Made by a program: the position numbers and the translations under genes | Origin: a virus | Lineage: Duplodnaviria; Heunggongvirae; Uroviricota; Caudoviricetes | DNA length: 42,613 nucleotides | Virus record (IMG/VR): IMGVR_UViG_2703718839_000008 | Direction: 5' to 3' (one strand) | In this document: positions 5,879 to 41,111 of the stretch, one piece after another | Position numbering within the stretch: position 1 is the first letter of the stretch | Layout of the letters: each line of letters starts with the position of its first letter | The notes under the pieces: model-generated | The model's input: the letters and a program-made list of their open reading frames with translations, nothing else | The model's database searches: none | Told to the model about the DNA's origin: nothing

Positions 5879-6241
5879 TTAATGACCTGCTGCGCGGAGT
5901 TTTCCGTCAGGTTCACCGGCAAGAGTCAGTAATTGTCCCTGGTCTTCCTGCAGAATAGTCAGGCGACCACCGCGATTGACATACATCGGCGTTTCGGTGG
6001 TGTCTTCTTCGGAAATTTTCCCGCGGTTAGTCGGGCGAACATATGAGAGTTTGTGTTTGATTTTCACACGGTTCTCATCAAATGGTTCGATTTCCAGGTT
6101 GAGTGAGACCTTCCCTTTGGTTTTCGTGTTCATCACACCGGAAGCGACTTCACTGAGAACTGCGCCGATTTTGGTTTCAAATACGCCGCCGTCCAGCTCC
6201 CCGATAAATGCCTGCACATCAGTACTGCGTTCGCTAGCCAT
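5879..6241 (-). CDS. YfdP-like hypothetical protein, 120 aa
   Basis: Internal ATG (MASERS...) with GAGGAG RBS; the longer ORF-track N-terminal extension runs through the GC-rich leader and is not protein-like. Confidence 0.55.
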   Translation of the reverse strand: MASERSTDVQAFIGELDGGVFETKIGAVLSEVASGVMNTKTKGKVSLNLEIEPFDENRVKIKHKLSYVRPTNRGKISEEDTTETPMYVNRGGRLTILQEDQGQLLTLAGEPDGKLRAAGH

Positions 6242-6289
6242 TTTGCTGCTCCTCATCATATCGACCCTGCAAGGTCGGTTGGTTTCTCC

Positions 6290-6560
6290 ACAAAACAGAG
6301 AAGAACACCTGCGGTGGCAGCCGCCCGGATGGATTGGGTTATGAGCCCGTCGTCCGGTGATGCTCTTCTCTGTTTTGTAAAAAGAGCGGTACCAGCCGGA
6401 AGCAAGTGTACAAACTGGTACCGCGAGGACTACACACAGCATAAAGTTGTGGTGCCGGGTGCCTCCCGGTGCCTGGCGAAGGTTGCACACCAGGCGGGTG
6501 GGTATCCACAGAAGGTCGACTGTCAGCCTCAACCTTAACCCGCGTGCGCTGAGCCGCATT
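6290..6560 (-). promoter_or_regulatory. GC-rich structured leader in the leftward early transcript; candidate cis-acting RNA (antitermination or processing element)
   Basis: Long-range inverted repeat caaaacagagaaga (6297-6310) / tcttctctgttttg (6373-6386); perfect hairpin ggtaccag...ctggtacc (about 6399-6433); boxA-like CGCTCTTTTTACAA on the minus strand; no credible ORF. Confidence 0.35.
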
Positions 6561-6678
6561 CACCACAACGCTAAGGATTCTCTCTGGTTGAAAATACTTA
6601 GCTGTTATGTGCCTGTCTTTTCACCACTTCAGGCTCGGTGGTATCCTTTTAAGCCCGTATACATAAAAGGAAAATCAA

Positions 6679-7350: not shown

Positions 7351-8004
7351 TCAAAAATCCATTATTACTTGTTTGACAAGACCAACTATTCTGCAGTTCT
7401 CACCGCATTCAATAGTTTTATAGTTAGGATTTAGTGGGACGAGATACCTGTTCGGCCAGTCCTCAACAAATTTTTTGAGTGTCGCTTCTTGCCCACCATT
7501 GATATGGGCAACAACGATTTTTCCGTTAATACACTCTGTATCAATAATATCTGGCTCTACGATAACGATAGAACCTTCTGGTATCGATGGTGAGCCGAGG
7601 GGATTGGTCATTGAATCACCACGGACCCGTAGTGCAAATGCCATTTCTGATACAAGGGCGGTAGTATAAACCCACTCTTCAGCATCTTCTTTCCTGACAC
7701 CAGGCTCCGTCATTGTCCATGAACCCGCCTGAACCCACGAGATGAGGGGGACTTTTTTAACTGCGAATATTTCAGGTTTTAGATTTATCTTTGGTTCAGG
7801 CGAGCCTTTTCCGCTAACAAGCCACAGAGGATCGCATTTAAGTGCGTTGGCTAGGGCTTGAAGGTTGGCTCCATTTGGTTGGTAGTCGTCCTTTTCCCAT
7901 CCAGTAACCGTGACACGGTTCACACCAGTCAAATCAGCCAGTGCTTGTTGTGTCAGGTTCAGTTCTTTTCGCCTTTGGCGAATACGATCACTCATGTTCA
8001 TCAT
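7351..8004 (-). CDS. CI-type prophage repressor (N-terminal HTH, C-terminal S24 LexA-like autopeptidase)
   Basis: N-terminal ...LNLTQQALADLTGVNRVTVTGWE HTH; C-terminal GDSM Ser and downstream Lys; divergent from the Cro-like gene with operators between. Confidence 0.85.
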   Translation of the reverse strand: MMNMSDRIRQRRKELNLTQQALADLTGVNRVTVTGWEKDDYQPNGANLQALANALKCDPLWLVSGKGSPEPKINLKPEIFAVKKVPLISWVQAGSWTMTEPGVRKEDAEEWVYTTALVSEMAFALRVRGDSMTNPLGSPSIPEGSIVIVEPDIIDTECINGKIVVAHINGGQEATLKKFVEDWPNRYLVPLNPNYKTIECGENCRIVGLVKQVIMDF

Positions 8005-12878: not shown

Positions 12879-13874
12879 GTGACCGTGAGAGCACTACTGA
12901 CCCCTGAAATAGCCCCGCGTATGGGGATTGTATTGTTCAGACCAGGTTCAGAGCTGATGCCCCTGTTTATGCAGGGGCGTGTCCTGCTGGAGCCTGAGCC
13001 GGAACGTTATTCATCTTTCGCCAGTGGTGCCGTTCCGGCGGCATCACAACCGCTGGCGGATGATCCTGCCGTTAGGGCCGTGTTCCGCAATGAGGCAGTG
13101 ATCCGTCGTGCTGGTGGCGTGGAATGTCTTGAAAGCTGGTTACTTCGTGAAAAAGGCTGCCAGTGGCCTCATTCCGACTGGCACAGCGAGAACATGACCA
13201 CAATGCGACACGCGCCGGGCGCGATCCGTCTGTGCTGGCACTGCGATAACCAGCTGCGCGATCAGTTCACGGAACGGCTGGAATCAATGGCAACGGATAA
13301 CTGTGCCCGCTGGGTGTTGTCTGTAGTCCGTCTGGATCTCGGTTTTGATGATAACCATGCCGTGACAATGCCGGAACTGTGCTGGTGGCTGATTCGTAAT
13401 GACCTGGCGGATGCCTTACCGGAAAGTGCAGCCCGTAAGGCACTGAGATTACCGAAGCCTGTTGTGCCGTCTGTCACCCGGGAAAGTGACCTTGTGCCTT
13501 CGGTTCCTGCCACCAGCATCATCCAGGATAAGGCGAAAAAGGTGCTGGCGCTGAAAGTGGATCCGGAGTCGCCGGAGTCTTTTATGTTACGCCCAAAACG
13601 CCGCCGCTGGGTTAATGAAAAGTACACGCGCTGGGTTAAGACACAGCCGTGTGCATGTTGTGGAAAGCCTGCTGATGATCCCCACCACCTGATAGGCCAC
13701 GGTCAGGGTGGAATGGGTACAAAAGCGCATGACCTCTTTGTGTTGCCTTTGTGCAGAAAGCATCACGACGAGCTGCATGCGGATACCGTGGCATTTGAAG
13801 AGAAGTATGGCTCTCAGCTGGAGCTGATATTTCGTTTTATCGATCGTGCGCTGGCAATTGGCGTATTGGCGTAA
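12879..13874 (+). CDS. DUF968-family nin-region protein (putative HNH-like C-terminus)
   Basis: C-terminal CACCGKPADDPHHLIGHG...LCRKHHDELH; GTG start. Confidence 0.6.
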   Translation: MTVRALLTPEIAPRMGIVLFRPGSELMPLFMQGRVLLEPEPERYSSFASGAVPAASQPLADDPAVRAVFRNEAVIRRAGGVECLESWLLREKGCQWPHSDWHSENMTTMRHAPGAIRLCWHCDNQLRDQFTERLESMATDNCARWVLSVVRLDLGFDDNHAVTMPELCWWLIRNDLADALPESAARKALRLPKPVVPSVTRESDLVPSVPATSIIQDKAKKVLALKVDPESPESFMLRPKRRRWVNEKYTRWVKTQPCACCGKPADDPHHLIGHGQGGMGTKAHDLFVLPLCRKHHDELHADTVAFEEKYGSQLELIFRFIDRALAIGVLA

Positions 13875-13887
13875 GTGGAGAACGAGC

Positions 13888-14640
13888 ATGAACCTTGAAG
13901 CCTTACCAAAATATTACTCCCCAAAATCTCCAAAATTGAGCGATGACGCACCGGCGACAGGCTCAGGTGGTTTAACGATTACGGATGTGATGGCTGCGCA
14001 GGGGATGGTGCAGTCGAAAGCACCGCTTGGGTTTGCCTTATTCCTGGCAAAAGTTGGTGTTCAGGATCCTCAATTTGCGATTGAAGGTCTGCTCAATTAC
14101 GCGATGGCACTGGATAACCCGACATTGAACAAATTGAGTGAAGAAACCCGGTTACAGATCATCCCTTACCTTGTGAATTTTGCCTTTGCTGATTATTCCA
14201 GGTCTGCGGCAAGTAAGGCTCGCTGTGAGCATTGTGCTGGTACTGGATTTCATAATGTATTGCGCGAAGTGGTGAAACACTCCAGAAGCGGGGAATCTGT
14301 TATCAAGGAAGAGTGGGTGAAGGAACTATGTCAGCATTGTCATGGTAAGGGAGAAGTCAGCACAGCGTGCAGAGGGTGTAAGGGTAAAGGTATTGTCCTG
14401 GATGAAAAAAGGACCCGGCTTCATGGCACGCCTGTTTATAAGATTTGTGGGCGTTGCAATGGAAACCGGTTTAGCCGTTTACCAACCACACTGGCGCGGC
14501 ATCATGTCCAGAAGCTGGTACCAGACCTGACGGATTATCAGTGGTACAAAGGATATGCAGATGTCATTGATAAACTGGTTACAAAGTGCTGGCAGGAAGA
14601 AGCATATGCAGAGATACAATTGAGAAAGGTGACAAGATAA
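13888..14640 (+). CDS. Late-gene antiterminator Q-like protein
   Basis: Multiple CxxC zinc-binding pairs; immediately upstream of the PR'-like promoter and terminator; GGAG RBS at MNLEAL. The ORF could instead start at 13846. Confidence 0.65.
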   Translation: MNLEALPKYYSPKSPKLSDDAPATGSGGLTITDVMAAQGMVQSKAPLGFALFLAKVGVQDPQFAIEGLLNYAMALDNPTLNKLSEETRLQIIPYLVNFAFADYSRSAASKARCEHCAGTGFHNVLREVVKHSRSGESVIKEEWVKELCQHCHGKGEVSTACRGCKGKGIVLDEKRTRLHGTPVYKICGRCNGNRFSRLPTTLARHHVQKLVPDLTDYQWYKGYADVIDKLVTKCWQEEAYAEIQLRKVTR

Positions 14641-15246: not shown

Positions 15247-16299
15247 ATGAAAAATACTGTAAAAATAAACAGTGTTGATTTAATCAACGCTGATTGCCTG
15301 CATTTTATTCAGTCCTTGCCTGATGATTCCATTGATCTGATTGTTACCGATCCGCCGTACTTCAAAGTGAAGCCCAACGGCTGGGACAATCAGTGGAAAG
15401 GGGACGAAGATTACCTGAAGTGGCTGGACTACTGTCTGGCCCAGTTCTGGCGGGTACTGAAACCAGCCGGAAGCCTTTACCTGTTCTGTGGACATCGCCT
15501 CGCATCTGATATCGAGATCATGATGCGTGAACGTTTCAACGTGCTTAACCATATCATCTGGGCGAAGCCGTCCGGACGATGGAACGGGTGTAATAAAGAA
15601 AGCCTGCGGGCATATTTCCCCGCTACAGAGCGCGTTCTGTTTGCTGAACATTACCAGGGGCCATATCGCGGCAAAAGTGACGGCTATGCGGCAAAAGAAA
15701 GGGAACTCAAACAGCACATAATGGCACCGCTGATATCGTATTTCAGGGATGCTCGTGCCGAACTGGGTATAACGGCAAAACAAATTGCCGAAGCCACAGG
15801 TAAGAAAAATATGGTTTCCCACTGGTTTGGTGCCAGTCAGTGGCAGTTGCCGAATGAGGCTGACTATCGGAAGTTACAGGCACTGTTTTCCCGTATAGCG
15901 GCAGAGAAGTTTCAGGAACAACAACTGGAACAACCACACCACCAGCTGGTGGCATCTTATGATTCACTGAATCGCAAATATTCTGAATTGCTGGATGAGT
16001 TTAAATCTCTCCGGCGCTATTTCTCCGTATCAGTCTCCGTGCCTTATACCGATGTCTGGACGCATAAGCCCGTTCAGTTCTACCCGGGTAAACATCCGTG
16101 CGAGAAACCGGCGGATATGCTCCGGCAAATAATCAATGCCAGTAGTCGACCTGGTGATCTGGTTGCTGATTTCTTTATGGGATCCGGTTCCACAATAAAA
16201 GCAGCAATGGCGCTGGGGCGTCGGGCGTTAGGTGTTGAACTTGAGTCAGAGCGGTTTAATCAGACGGTGAAAGAGGTAAGTGAACTGGTGGGGAAATAA
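15247..16299 (+). CDS. DNA methyltransferase (beta-class N6A/N4C type), orphan, in the late region
   Basis: N-terminal DPPY motif (LIVTDPPYF) and C-terminal FMGSGST AdoMet motif; no adjacent nuclease. Confidence 0.75.
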   Translation: MKNTVKINSVDLINADCLHFIQSLPDDSIDLIVTDPPYFKVKPNGWDNQWKGDEDYLKWLDYCLAQFWRVLKPAGSLYLFCGHRLASDIEIMMRERFNVLNHIIWAKPSGRWNGCNKESLRAYFPATERVLFAEHYQGPYRGKSDGYAAKERELKQHIMAPLISYFRDARAELGITAKQIAEATGKKNMVSHWFGASQWQLPNEADYRKLQALFSRIAAEKFQEQQLEQPHHQLVASYDSLNRKYSELLDEFKSLRRYFSVSVSVPYTDVWTHKPVQFYPGKHPCEKPADMLRQIINASSRPGDLVADFFMGSGSTIKAAMALGRRALGVELESERFNQTVKEVSELVGK

Positions 16300-36828: not shown

Positions 36829-37467
36829 ATGCATCGTATAGACACGAAAACCGCGCAGAAGGATAAGTTCGGCGCGGGTAAGAACGGTTTTACCCGTGGT
36901 AACCCCCAGACCGGCACACCTGCCACCGATCTGGATGATGACTACTTTGACATGTTGCAGGAGGAGCTTTGCAGCGTTGTGGAGGCATCCGGTGCCAGCC
37001 TGGAGAAGGGGCGGCACGACCAGCTGCTTACCGCGCTTCGTGCGCTGCTGTTAAGCCGCAAGAATCCGTTTGGTGATATCAAATCGGATGGCACGGTGAA
37101 AACGGCTCTCGAAAACCTTGGTTTGGGGGAATTGGCTCTGGCTGGCGCAACAACCGGCGCTATGTTGGTGAATGGGTATGTAGCAATTCCATTAATTATT
37201 TCTGGCGTTCGGAGACCACTTATTATCCAGTGGGGAGTGGGGCAGTTTGGGGGAAGTCTGGGGGATGATGCGGGATATTTAAACAATTTCCCTTTCGCTT
37301 TTCCGTCGGCGTGCTACGTGATGGTTGCCAGCCACGTGGGGCATACACCTTCGGGTGCCGGAATACTATCTGCTTCCGCAATCACAAAAAGCGGCTTTCG
37401 TGGTTTTTCCAGCGTAGCGACTGCCGCAAATCCTGTATCGGGCTGTTATGTTGCTATAGGAGGGTGA
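36829..37467 (+). CDS. Tail fibre protein: constant N-terminal part fused to variable C-terminal part in current orientation
   Basis: N-terminus [55 protein letters not shown] matches e14/Mu-type fibre N-termini; recombination site falls within codons ENLGLGE. Confidence 0.8.
37108..37130. repeat. Left inverted-repeat recombination site (gix/pix-like) of the invertible fibre segment
   Basis: ctcgaaaaccttggtttgggggaa is the near-inverse of 38912-38934; resembles Gin/Hin site core. Confidence 0.6.
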
Positions 37468-37468
37468 T

Positions 37469-37903
37469 GTGTTTTTTAGTCCATCTTTAAATATTTTTGT
37501 GAATCCTGCGCTTAAGGATGACTACATCAATGAAAATTCATGGCCAGATGATGCTGTTGAAGTTGATGAGCAGGTGTATATTGAGTTTTCCGGATTACCG
37601 CCGAAAGGAAAAATCCGTATCGCTGGGGAAAATGGTTTTCCTGCATGGTCTGAAATTCCACCACCAACGCATGAGGAACAGATTGCCGCAGCCGAATTGA
37701 AAAAACAGCAATTGATTAATCAGTCCAACGAATATATGAATACCAAGCAATGGCCTGGTAAAGCGGCTATTGGTCGTCTGAAAGGTGAGGAACTGGCGCA
37801 ATATAATTTGTGGCTGGATTATCTGGACGCACTGGAACTGGTTGATACCTCCAGTGCTCCAGATATTGAATGGCCTACGCCTCCGGCAGTTCAGGCCAGA
37901 TGA
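37469..37903 (+). CDS. Tail fibre assembly protein
   Basis: GTG start after GGAGGG; C-terminal ...LDYLDALELVDTSSAPDIEWP typical of Tfa chaperones. Confidence 0.7.
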   Translation: MFFSPSLNIFVNPALKDDYINENSWPDDAVEVDEQVYIEFSGLPPKGKIRIAGENGFPAWSEIPPPTHEEQIAAAELKKQQLINQSNEYMNTKQWPGKAAIGRLKGEELAQYNLWLDYLDALELVDTSSAPDIEWPTPPAVQAR

Positions 37904-38468
37904 CATCCGGCGCGGTGCTCGTATCTGTTGCCGTCGCCGCGTCAATGTAATCAAGCACGGCGTTAAGCCGGGTGGTTTCTGCCTGCGTCAGCTTCCGCCC
38001 GGCCTGTAATTTCAGCTGAATCAGACTGATGGAAGCCATTGCAGCATCAATCAGTGACTGGCGCTGTGCTTCTGCCGCTTCTACTGCGGCACCGTGTTGT
38101 GCCTCAGTATCTGTCACCCATTTCTCACCATCCCATTTATCATATGGCGTTAACGGTGAAAGCGTGACATAACCGTTTTTGATGGCACCGATATAATCCA
38201 CTGTAACAGCAGCACCATTTTCGATTGAGTAAACAGTCTCATTGCGATGGTCTTCTTCATGGCTCCATCCCTTACCTGTAAATACTGCCACTCTTCCCGG
38301 AATGTTTTCGCCAGGGTCAATACCAGTGGAACAGGCGGGCATACTTACGCCAGTATTAATATATTCATCAGACCAGCCCGTATACTCAGATGTTTCAGCA
38401 TCATAATAAAAACAACGCATATCGCCCGGCACTGTAGCCAGCCCATTTTCATCAAAAACAGGTTTCAT
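37875..38468 (-). CDS. Alternative tail fibre assembly protein, opposite orientation
   Basis: Convergent with and overlapping the plus-strand Tfa gene; C-terminal ...LDYIDAATATDTSTAPDVIWP motif. Confidence 0.7.
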   Translation of the reverse strand: MKPVFDENGLATVPGDMRCFYYDAETSEYTGWSDEYINTGVSMPACSTGIDPGENIPGRVAVFTGKGWSHEEDHRNETVYSIENGAAVTVDYIGAIKNGYVTLSPLTPYDKWDGEKWVTDTEAQHGAAVEAAEAQRQSLIDAAMASISLIQLKLQAGRKLTQAETTRLNAVLDYIDAATATDTSTAPDVIWPELPEA

Positions 38469-38925
38469 TATTTAGCCCTCACCAGAAAGTTAAATGCAAT
38501 ATTTCGCGGTCTGACAGCAACAAAATTCACACCATCACCCACAGAGTTACTGGTGAAATTAAATCGTGAAAATCCTGGCTGATTTCCGGCGATGCCATCA
38601 TGAAAGTTAATTGCGTGTCCCGCACCTCCGCCTATATTCCCGGCAAACTGAGAAAAGTTTGTAGCTTCCTGCCAGCTTAATAATTCGCGACCACCATCGG
38701 CACCTCGCCCGTCATCCCAGATACGAATGAAATCACCGCGGGCTTCAGGTAATACCAGTGAAGGAAACACTTTCGCCAGCACAGGGTAATCAGAGGCAGA
38801 AAATTTCGCCCCGTTGAACTTCAAAAACACCATACTGGACCAGCTGTCGATTACAGTATTTGGCATTGCAGCGGACGGCCAGAAGAACGGAACGCCAATA
38901 GCTGGAGCACCTTCTCCCAAACCAA
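38468..38925 (-). CDS. Alternative variable tail-fibre C-terminal segment, start-less, expressed only after inversion
   Basis: Reads from the right recombination site as LGLGEGAPAIG..., joining in frame to ...ENLGLGE; no own start codon. Confidence 0.65.
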
Positions 38926-38934
38926 CCTTTCAAA
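38912..38934. repeat. Right inverted-repeat recombination site of the invertible segment
   Basis: ttctcccaaaccaacctttcaaa; reverse complement matches the left site with few mismatches. Confidence 0.6.
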
Positions 38935-38996
38935 TATTTTTCTGAATCAGGTGATATTTCGCCTCTTCTCCTGTTTTTACAACAGGAGAAGCACTC

Positions 38997-39560
38997 ATGA
39001 TTTACGGGTATGTTCGTGTATCAACAAATCATCAGGATACAGAGTTGCAACGTCTTGCACTTGAGTCAGCTGGCTGTGAGCGAATTTATGAAGAATATGC
39101 CAGTGGCAGAACAGCTAATCGCCCTGTGTTAAAGGAATTAATTACGGTGATGAAAAGTGGAGATGAGTTGATTGTCTGGAAGTTAGATCGGATAGGGAGA
39201 AATGTGCTGCATGCGCTATTGATGTTTCAAAATCTGCACGAAAAAGGTGTTAATTTTCGGAGTATTACAGATGGCGTAGACCTGAAAACAGCAAGTGGTC
39301 GCTATAATTTCCGTAATATTCTTTCTGCTGCGCAGTATGAATCTGATTTGAATAGCGAGCGAACTTTAGCTGGTTTGGCTATTGCCAGATCCAAAGGCCG
39401 GATTGGTGGGCGTAGACCGAAGTTTAGCGACGAGCAGTGGCAACAGATGGGAGCGATCATAGCGGCAGGGAAATCACGGCGTTATGTTGCACGTATCTAT
39501 AACGTTGGGCTATCAACCCTATATAAACGATTTCCTGTTACTGGCATTCAAACGAAATAA
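38997..39560 (+). CDS. pin: Serine DNA invertase (Pin/Gin/Hin family)
   Basis: MIYGYVRVSTNHQDTELQ... catalytic Ser, resolvase domain and C-terminal HTH; adjacent to the invertible segment; AGGAGA RBS. Confidence 0.85.
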   Translation: MIYGYVRVSTNHQDTELQRLALESAGCERIYEEYASGRTANRPVLKELITVMKSGDELIVWKLDRIGRNVLHALLMFQNLHEKGVNFRSITDGVDLKTASGRYNFRNILSAAQYESDLNSERTLAGLAIARSKGRIGGRRPKFSDEQWQQMGAIIAAGKSRRYVARIYNVGLSTLYKRFPVTGIQTK

Positions 39561-39703
39561 TTTAAAAGCAATTTAAAGAGTTATTTGTCTAATGTTGGAA
39601 GCCGCAGCCACGTCGTATGCAAGAACGTGCTGCGGCTGGCTGGCGAACTTTCGATAGTGCGAGTATTGAATGATTTCCAGCCGTTACCGATTTTACGTGT
39701 TAA

Positions 39704-39952
39704 TTAGTGAACAAACCACTCGTCAGCAGATTCCCAGGTATCTTTCAGAGTCTCCTGAACAAAAGTTTTTGCAGAATCCTTATCTGCGGTGCGTGTAACA
39801 GAAAGGCCATCGTTGCTGGTGGCTTTTACGATCACCTCTACATCGTCATAACGTTTACTGATGCGTCGGGTTAATTCTTCCTTTAACGCATCCACAGCAC
39901 CGGTTGGCATTTTAGTCATTTTTTCTTTGGCTATGCAGATTTCAATACGCAT
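39704..39952 (-). CDS. DinI-like protein
   Basis: [11 protein letters not shown]...LKEELTRRI...[16 protein letters not shown] matches the DinI-family pattern; two LexA boxes upstream. Confidence 0.7.
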
Positions 39953-39965
39953 AAAAGTCCCTCTA

Positions 39966-39985
39966 TACTGTGTTTGTATACAGTA
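39966..39985. promoter_or_regulatory. LexA (SOS) box 1
   Basis: TACTGTGTTTGTATACAGTA, a perfect CTGT-N8-ACAG palindrome. Confidence 0.75.
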
Positions 39986-39993
39986 TTATTTTT

Positions 39994-40013
39994 AACTGTA
40001 TAGATAAACAGTG
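39994..40013. promoter_or_regulatory. LexA (SOS) box 2
   Basis: AACTGTATAGATAAACAGTG, CTGT-N8-ACAG. Confidence 0.7.
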
Positions 40014-41111
40014 TCAAGAGGCCTTATTTCTGCTCCTTTGGAGCTCTTCAAAACGATTATGTAAAGATTTCGGATACAGTTCGGTATATACCTGCCATAG
40101 CACGTTTAATGAACGATGCCCTGTAACCTGGGCGACTTCCTCAATACTAAAACCAGCCTCAAATAAGCGACTTGCCCCTTCTCTACGCAAATCATGGTAT
40201 CGCAGATCTTTAATACCTAATTTGCTTCTTACCCTCTGGAATCCCGCAGTAACAGAAGTGCTGTTATATGGAAAAATGAATTCTGATTTTTTGGGTTGTC
40301 GTTGGACGATATCCCAGGCTTCCCCAAGCAAGGCTACTTTCATATGGTTGCCTTCCTTTTTACGTGGATCTTTCCTGTCTCTTACGAGTATGGATTTTTG
40401 TTCCTGATCGAGATCCTCCCATCGTAATCGGCATACTTCACCGATTCGCATACATGACCACACAGAAAATTTGAGGATATCAACGAACGGAATTTTTGAG
40501 CATTTATGTGTAGATCGTTGTTGAAGACCTTCAATGAGCATGTCCAGTTCATCAGATGCCGGTCTACGATTACGACGATTTGATTTACCAATTAAACCAA
40601 GTTTAAGTAGATATGGACGAGCGGCTTTTGCTGGGTTTGATGTGTAATTAATTCCATATACAGGTTTGGCAGCATCCAGAACACTGCCAAGATAACTAAC
40701 ATCGTGGCTAACTGTAGCTGGACCTGCACCAGCGTTGTTTCTTAGCCTGCAATGTTCAATTACGTCATTTTCTGTCAGTTCAGATAGTTTGAGCGCGGAG
40801 ACGTCACTATCCATAAGCAGTTCCAGCACATATCTTTTAGTACGGCCTGCTTTACCTCCGGCATTTGGGTCATTTAAATATTTGTGTAGTAAGTCACGGA
40901 CTGTAAGTCCGTCAACTGCATTTGATGATGGAATGCCATATAGATCTAATTCCATCACTTTCTGTGTGCCCCATGTTTTGGCATGAGCATGTTTAGGGAA
41001 TGTTTTACTTTCCCTGTAAGTGATAACACCTTTTTCTTTGATAATCACATTACAGCGATAGCGTGGTGTGCCATCGGATTTTAGTCGTTTCTCTATGTTA
41101 TAGTATGCCAT
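40014..41111 (-). CDS. int: Tyrosine integrase (dusA-targeting type)
   Basis: 365 aa with C-terminal tyrosine recombinase catalytic region (R..H..R..Y); adjacent to attR within dusA. Confidence 0.85.
   Translation of the reverse strand: MAYYNIEKRLKSDGTPRYRCNVIIKEKGVITYRESKTFPKHAHAKTWGTQKVMELDLYGIPSSNAVDGLTVRDLLHKYLNDPNAGGKAGRTKRYVLELLMDSDVSALKLSELTENDVIEHCRLRNNAGAGPATVSHDVSYLGSVLDAAKPVYGINYTSNPAKAARPYLLKLGLIGKSNRRNRRPASDELDMLIEGLQQRSTHKCSKIPFVDILKFSVWSCMRIGEVCRLRWEDLDQEQKSILVRDRKDPRKKEGNHMKVALLGEAWDIVQRQPKKSEFIFPYNSTSVTAGFQRVRSKLGIKDLRYHDLRREGASRLFEAGFSIEEVAQVTGHRSLNVLWQVYTELYPKSLHNRFEELQRSRNKAS

Follow-up and report, generated by a model that had tools for sequence, protein, structure and literature searches.

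A DinI-family gene preceded by two predicted LexA operators at the integrase end of a lambdoid prophage of Escherichia coli

The systems closest to the gene described here are the chromosomal DinI protein of Escherichia coli and the dinI homologues of the Gifsy prophages. In the cryo-EM structure of the DinI-RecA complex, the contacts with RecA are made by residues L13, L21, W71, W77, and F78, and by the acidic residues E24, E69, and D76, and in the published structures the elements of the RecA groove used by DinI are also those used by lambda CI (PMC9926225). RecA filaments are also stabilized and lengthened by DinI (PMC9926225 and papers cited there). [quoted passage not shown] Each of these copies figures among the SOS genes with a single box (PMC8072944). 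[quoted passage not shown] Since the Gifsy repressors are not cleaved through RecA*, these deletions are no fair test where the phage CI can be cleaved.

An earlier note on the DNA analyzed here had proposed that a prophage copy of dinI under LexA control could dampen or time the RecA-mediated cleavage of the phage repressor, as a feedback on induction. Because LexA-controlled dinI homologues of prophages have already been described in the Gifsy elements, this idea is not new in kind, and the present element refines known biology. In the literature searched, no experiments on this element, or on the function of the DinI-like genes of E. coli prophages, were found, and no report of LexA binding or of lexA-dependent damage induction of these copies was found either. 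The relevant items on DinI-like copies were only passing mentions in genome-association studies.

The whole stretch of DNA that was analyzed (the window, 42,613 nucleotides) corresponds to a lambdoid prophage of E. coli integrated in the 5' end of dusA. Host genes lie at both of its ends, with DUF2713/yjbM at 1-708 and dusA together with pspG from 41200 onward. The prophage genes start with the early-left genes, CI, a CII-like gene, the replication genes, DUF968, and Q, and continue with a DNA methylase gene, the lysis, head, and tail genes, an invertible tail-fiber segment, its invertase, the dinI-like gene, and int (Table 1). The displaced 5' end of the native dusA (1068-1174) and the replacement supplied by the phage (41197-41303) were 83% identical. 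These two dusA 5' stretches bound the prophage of approximately 40 kb, and the same dusA fragments are annotated in SKA5 and in strain 81. The tail-fiber switch extends over 36829-39560, with fiber and assembly genes on the plus strand (36829-37903) and an opposed alternative pair on the minus strand (37875-38920), and its invertase is a serine invertase of the Hin/Gin type. Additionally, a match to the small RNA STnc100 of Rfam was found on the minus strand at 6377-6599 (49.1 bits, for a gathering threshold of 47 bits), where it overlaps the 5' part of the ORF 5879-6559 (PHROG 204).

Table 1. Coordinates of the features discussed in the text (positions in the window).
Feature	Coordinates	Strand	Evidence or remark
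Prophage CI repressor (HTH and S24 peptidase)	7351-8004	minus	Pfam Peptidase_S24 and HTH_3
Q	13846-14640		
Invertase of the tail-fiber segment	38997-39560		Convergent with the dinI-like gene
3' UTR with two hairpins	39600-39682	minus	RNA fold of -36.4 kcal/mol, z = -3.16
DinI-like coding sequence (82 aa, TAA stop included in the coordinates)	39704-39952	minus	ORF list and family matches
Shine-Dalgarno sequence AGAGGGA	39958-39964	minus	Read from the sequence; 5-6 nt ahead of the ATG
Proximal predicted LexA operator TACTGTATACAAACACAGTA	39966-39985 (core 39968-39983)	minus	Exact CTGT-N8-ACAG; 17/20 to the consensus
-10 element, TAAAAA (17-nt spacer) or AAAAAT (18-nt spacer)	39988-39994	minus	Promoter scan
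Distal predicted LexA operator CACTGTTTATCTATACAGTT	39994-40013 (core 39996-40011)	minus	Exact CTGT-N8-ACAG; 16/20 to the consensus
-35 element TTGACA (consensus)	40012-40017	minus	Overlaps the integrase TGA stop (40016-40014)
Tyrosine integrase, dusA-specific	40014-41111	minus	Pfam Phage_integrase, E = 1.1e-20; same strand as the cassette and upstream of it

The cleavage of the phage repressor, to which the earlier note had referred in general terms, was found to be pertinent to this prophage. Its CI is an S24 protein that aligned with lambda CI (3bdn) at E = 7e-25, with the motifs VQAG, GDSM, and LKK in register with the cleavage site and with the Ser/Lys dyad. As a repressor of the lambda type with an intact cleavage site, CI should make the induction of the prophage dependent on RecA*, following the lambda paradigm. 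CI is also the presumed RecA* substrate for which the DinI-like protein would compete.

The presence of a minus-strand ORF of the DinI family next to the integrase gene was confirmed from the ORF list and from three collections, and the relatedness to DinI, for which a profile search had been suggested as a check, was borne out. The product matched Pfam DinI (PF06183) at E = 1.1e-19 and 70.9 bits, for a cut-off of 24.2, over all of the profile (positions 1-63 of 63). It also matched PHROG 189, “RecA filament binding protein DinI” (E = 5.7e-31), and the DinI structures 1ghh and 7ywa (E = 3.7e-13), residues 1-81 aligning on chain residues 1-79. This end-to-end alignment with the solved protein takes in the C-terminal acidic helix, ...TWESAD(D/E)WF. 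The identity with K-12 DinI was 47%, with three small indels. Against the DinI equivalog model of NCBIfam (NF007893), the protein scored 73 bits, below the cut-off of 111 bits, and is therefore a paralogue and not the chromosomal orthologue. Linkage to pyrC is absent, the gene being located between the invertase and the integrase of the prophage. All eight of the residues listed as RecA contacts (PMC9926225) were identical or conservatively replaced. Those of the pocket, L13, L21, W71, W77, and F78 in DinI, correspond to M15, L23, W73, W79, and F80 in the DinI-like protein, and the acidic residues E24, E69, and D76 correspond to E26, D71, and E78.

Only 61 bp separate the ATG of the dinI-like gene (39952) from the stop codon of the integrase gene, and the two CTGT-N8-ACAG palindromes that had been described between them were both found inside this interval, at 39968-39983 and 39996-40011. 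On the minus strand, the promoter reads TTGACA (40017-40012), CTGTTTATCTATACAG (40011-39996), T, TAAAAA (39994-39989), TAATA, and CTGTATACAAACACAG (39983-39968), and CTGTATACAAACACAG is followed by TAT, AGAGGGA, CTTTT, and the ATG. The spacer between the -35 and -10 elements is filled by the distal operator, which has bases in common with the -35 at the junction TTGACACTGT. The promoter scan gave 10 matches out of 12, with TAAAAA accounting for four of the six positions of the -10, and it found no plus-strand promoter under the boxes that would run antisense into int. The proximal operator starts five bases past the -10, and the transcription start, predicted near 39981-39983, falls within it; the two operators are 28 bp apart, centre to centre. 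Both operators overlap promoter elements, so bound LexA would exclude RNA polymerase. The same dinI-like promoter is annotated in the record of phage mEp460, and LexA operators are unannotated in the examined records of the cassettes of mEp460, SKA5, and related phages.

The strength of the operators was expressed as the number of matches to the 20-bp LexA consensus TACTGTATATATATACAGTA, and was benchmarked on the lexA and dinI operators of K-12. The latter scored 15 and 14 for lexA and 15 for dinI, and the boxes of the dinI-like gene, with 17 and 16, were at least as good. The boxes had been called perfect in the earlier note; this description holds for the CTGT and ACAG arms, but not for the full 20-mers. 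When the 42.6 kb were scanned with the consensus, only three 20-mers reached at least 14 of 20 matches (17, 16, and 16). Two of them are the boxes of the dinI-like gene, and beyond the three no further LexA site at this threshold was found in the window for int or for the early genes. The exact CTGT-N8-ACAG motif occurred three times in the window, for an expected count of 0.5, and this number was reached in none of 100 shuffles.

The third LexA box, TACTGTAAAAATAAACAGTG (16/20, 15255-15274), lies inside an ORF on the plus strand (15247-16299) that codes for an N6/N4 DNA methylase downstream of Q, and spans codons 3-9 of that gene. In homologous methylase genes from phages of the Stx2 type and of Klebsiella and Hafnia, the CTGT...CAG arms were invariant, unlike the two codons that directly precede the box. 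This pattern suggests that the methylase gene may be under LexA control or subject to roadblocking, with a coding constraint as the alternative.

The distribution of the promoter was then considered at two scales. Within E. coli, the 68-nt promoter was present with an identity of at least 90% in 997 of the 5426 complete genomes (approximately 18%). The box sequences were kept while their flanks diverged in cdtI, YYZ-2008, PhiR12_1, 1720a-02, and BP-4795, and the proximal operator was kept in every intact homologous promoter that was examined.

The comparison across species comprised 80 loci, with one genome per species. Exactly one CTG-N10-CAG box was found ahead of the chromosomal dinI linked to pyrC in all 39 such loci, usually at a distance of 37 nt from the ATG. 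A clade located at prophage ends, with tail-fiber, baseplate, invertase, or integrase genes as neighbors, is made up by the 15 loci nearest to the gene of the window (56-99% protein identity), and 11 of these 15 had a pair of boxes, near -59 and -32. The loci with two boxes came from Escherichia, Shigella, Erwinia, Mixta, and Pantoea, and from two contigs whose taxonomic labels are doubtful. The TTGACACTGT junction recurred in loci of Escherichia, Erwinia, Mixta, and Rosenbergiella. The Rosenbergiella locus had the distal box only, and an integrase gene with 69% identity directly upstream, which indicates that the linkage of int and dinI is old. Among the relatives with two boxes, the spacing between centres ranged from 24 to 29 bp, so cooperative binding of LexA is not implied; the position of the boxes on the promoter is conserved, whereas their helical phasing is not. 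No earlier description was found of the conserved two-operator promoter of the prophage-end clade, as opposed to the single operator of the chromosomal dinI. The LexA control that the earlier note had asserted is made likely by the placement of the boxes on the promoter and by their conservation across genera.

A second prophage clade, with proteins of 74-79 aa, had one box and was located near Q and DUF968 genes, which fits a position of the Gifsy type. Five Yersinia loci had non-ATG starts (CTA/CTG) and no LexA box within the 150 nt upstream. These matches may be the C-terminal parts of longer Tum-like fusions, the start and the operator of which would lie further upstream.

The limits of homology with other phages delineated the element itself. 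Phages mEp460, SKA5, and 1720a-02 have a nearly identical pair of int and dinI-like gene. In other phage contexts, homology stopped at about 40017-40020, where the -35 begins on its upstream side, and the adjoining sequence further upstream was unrelated. This limit was shared by cdtI (beside cdtABC), Stx1/Stx2, YYZ-2008, PhiR12_1, BP-4795, and one context beside nleC. At the 3' side, homology ended just past a GC-rich hairpin (39600-39637). This distal hairpin is likely a terminator. In other copies the same hairpin is followed by a T-run, as in a canonical terminator, and the T-run has been lost here, where the cassette meets the invertase region; the scan for intrinsic terminators found none at the 3' end of the dinI-like gene of the window. 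With mosaic limits at both edges, the unit of promoter, gene, and hairpin is, as far as can be read from its sequence, a mobile and self-contained cassette (“moron”). It is usually located in the prophage end next to att, together with cargo genes.

In E. coli strain 81 (NZ_CP088131.1, 1503-10028), only a remnant of approximately 8.5 kb of the same prophage was present at dusA. The int gene, the DinI-like gene, and the invertase gene of this remnant were 100% identical to those of the window and were joined directly to the early-left genes, with no head, tail, or lysis genes, and the host lexA-dinF operon was located a few kb beyond. Since the remnant keeps the SOS cassette, the cassette outlasts the decay of the prophage.

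Taken together, these observations make it highly probable that the element is an SOS-regulon cassette that encodes a LexA-repressed RecA* binder of the DinI family. In the lysogen, LexA dimers on both operators would shut a strong sigma-70 promoter. Upon DNA damage, RecA* would drive the self-cleavage of LexA and the dinI-like gene would be derepressed. Since LexA would have to leave two strong operators, the gene should stay tightly silent and be expressed late, or only once damage is deep or prolonged. Tight and late induction through multiple or strong LexA operators is established for other SOS promoters. The 82-aa protein would then bind the groove of the RecA* filament through the pocket formed by M15, L23, W73, W79, and F80 and through the acidic residues E26, D71, and E78. 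The RecA surface involved, with the L2 loop and K232/R243/K245, would be the one shared by LexA, UmuD, and CI repressors of the lambda type. At this surface, the protein would most likely compete with slowly cleaved substrates, UmuD and the prophage's own CI, the filament being stabilized meanwhile, although the direction of the net effect is uncertain. Such a competition would damp or delay both induction and SOS mutagenesis.

That the outcome is specifically a brake on induction is put forward tentatively. Since DinI stabilizes RecA filaments, the protein could also prolong the activity of RecA* and not damp it, and, as a paralogue that falls below the cut-off of the DinI equivalog, it could have a different partner. 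A broader proposal is that the two-operator DinI clade of prophage ends is a device dedicated to the phage, by which the RecA* threshold is set at which lambda-type repressors are cleaved; this is doubtful. If it were true, the device could act as a brake, with transient damage being filtered out, as a latch, with the phage being committed when LexA runs out, or as a weapon that alters in trans the induction of co-resident prophages drawing on the same RecA* pool, and its function would be distinct from those of the host DinI and of the dinI genes of the Gifsy type.

Apart from a brake on induction, the gene could be cargo that benefits the lysogen, the extra dosage of DinI limiting UmuD processing and the toxicity or mutagenesis of the SOS response, for instance under quinolones. 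Such a benefit would explain the persistence of the cassette in degraded prophages, and several observations point in this direction: the gene is found in an att-proximal cargo zone, beside cdt, nleC, and other accessory genes; it was kept with int and the invertase gene in the remnant of strain 81; it is carried by about 18% of the complete E. coli genomes; and a DinI-like gene is part of a viral region that was considered in a discussion of quinolone-resistance associations (bioRxiv 10.1101/2023.06.20.545734). This support is correlative, however, and hitch-hiking with int and att accounts for the retention of the gene equally well. Furthermore, a LexA-controlled dinI is already present in the host. 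This explanation was considered possible but rather unlikely.

A feed-forward latch, in which the protein acts mainly by stabilizing the RecA* filament after a deep depletion of LexA, in the way of the host DinI at moderate levels, promoting the cleavage of CI and the commitment to induction, appears unlikely as well. [quoted passage not shown] Nevertheless, DinI and lambda CI share elements of the RecA groove, so stoichiometric binding should exclude CI, and the deletions of the dinI homologues of Gifsy had no phenotype.

It is improbable that part of the product is an RNA, released from the 3' UTR as an SOS-induced small RNA in the manner of DinR of Klebsiella, which is cut from the dinI mRNA (PMC10907235). 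The 3' UTR (39600-39703, minus strand) is conserved among the E. coli copies. Its length of about 100 nt and its fold (z = -3.16) would suit such an RNA, and one diverged copy was 79% identical in the UTR as compared with 71% in the coding sequence. However, the copies of 1720a-02, PhiR12_1, and BP-4795 have the same promoter with unrelated UTRs, and other copies showed no excess of conservation. The Rfam search of the 3' UTR gave nothing above threshold, and its sole match, on the plus strand, involved the part of CssrB that forms the terminator (23.5 bits, threshold of 76 bits).

[quoted passage not shown] The anatomy of the locus makes this extremely unlikely. No minus-strand ORF of at least 30 aa was found in the 143 bp between the stop of the dinI-like gene and the convergent invertase gene, where hairpins are located instead; only positions 71-149 of PHROG 189 were matched, so the antirepressor half is missing; and CI is a cleavable repressor of the lambda type. 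The antirepressor operon was rejected on these three grounds, the lack of a downstream ORF, the lack of the N-terminal domain, and the cleavable CI. That the boxes are chance or relic motifs with no LexA regulation is hardly credible, given their enrichment over shuffles, their exact placement on promoter elements, and their conservation across genera despite diverged flanks.

Under the favored reading, a LexA-repressed RecA* binder of the DinI family, about a fifth of the sequenced E. coli genomes would have an extra phage-borne modulator of RecA, probably wired to LexA. This matters for the way in which prophages, Shiga-toxin phages among them, tune their induction when antibiotics damage DNA, and also for the SOS mutagenesis of lysogens. 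The layout with two operators, as compared with that of the chromosomal dinI, also offers a clean handle for timing experiments.

Among the known systems, the nearest are other copies of the same element. The “DNA damage-inducible protein” of mEp460 (mEp460_021) and of SKA5 is identical to the DinI-like protein of the window, and the copies of mEp460, SKA5, cdtI, Stx1/Stx2, YYZ-2008, and BP-4795 are the same cassette, with 72-99% DNA identity and no material difference. SOS promoters with several operators are known from lexA, recN, and the colicin genes. In lexA, two adjacent boxes are 21 bp apart, whereas in the dinI-like promoter a spacer box joined to the -35 and a start-site box are 28 bp apart. 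The Tum protein of coliphage 186, with its split versions in PSP3 and Fels-2, is likewise LexA-controlled, and its DinI-like C-terminal half belongs to the same PHROG 189; Tum has an N-terminal antirepressor domain, however, which the DinI-like protein lacks.

The chromosomal DinI (b1061; 1GHH, 7YWA) belongs to the same family and length class, has the same RecA contacts, and also has a LexA box at the start site. The chromosomal gene is linked to pyrC and has one operator, as in all 39 orthologues, whereas the dinI-like gene is borne by a prophage and has two. Finally, the Gifsy genes have a single box, are located downstream of replication genes, and form an operon with the antirepressor gene and irsA in prophages with uncleaved repressors. 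In contrast, the dinI-like gene of the window is a single-gene cassette at the att end, with two operators, in a prophage with a repressor predicted to be cleavable.
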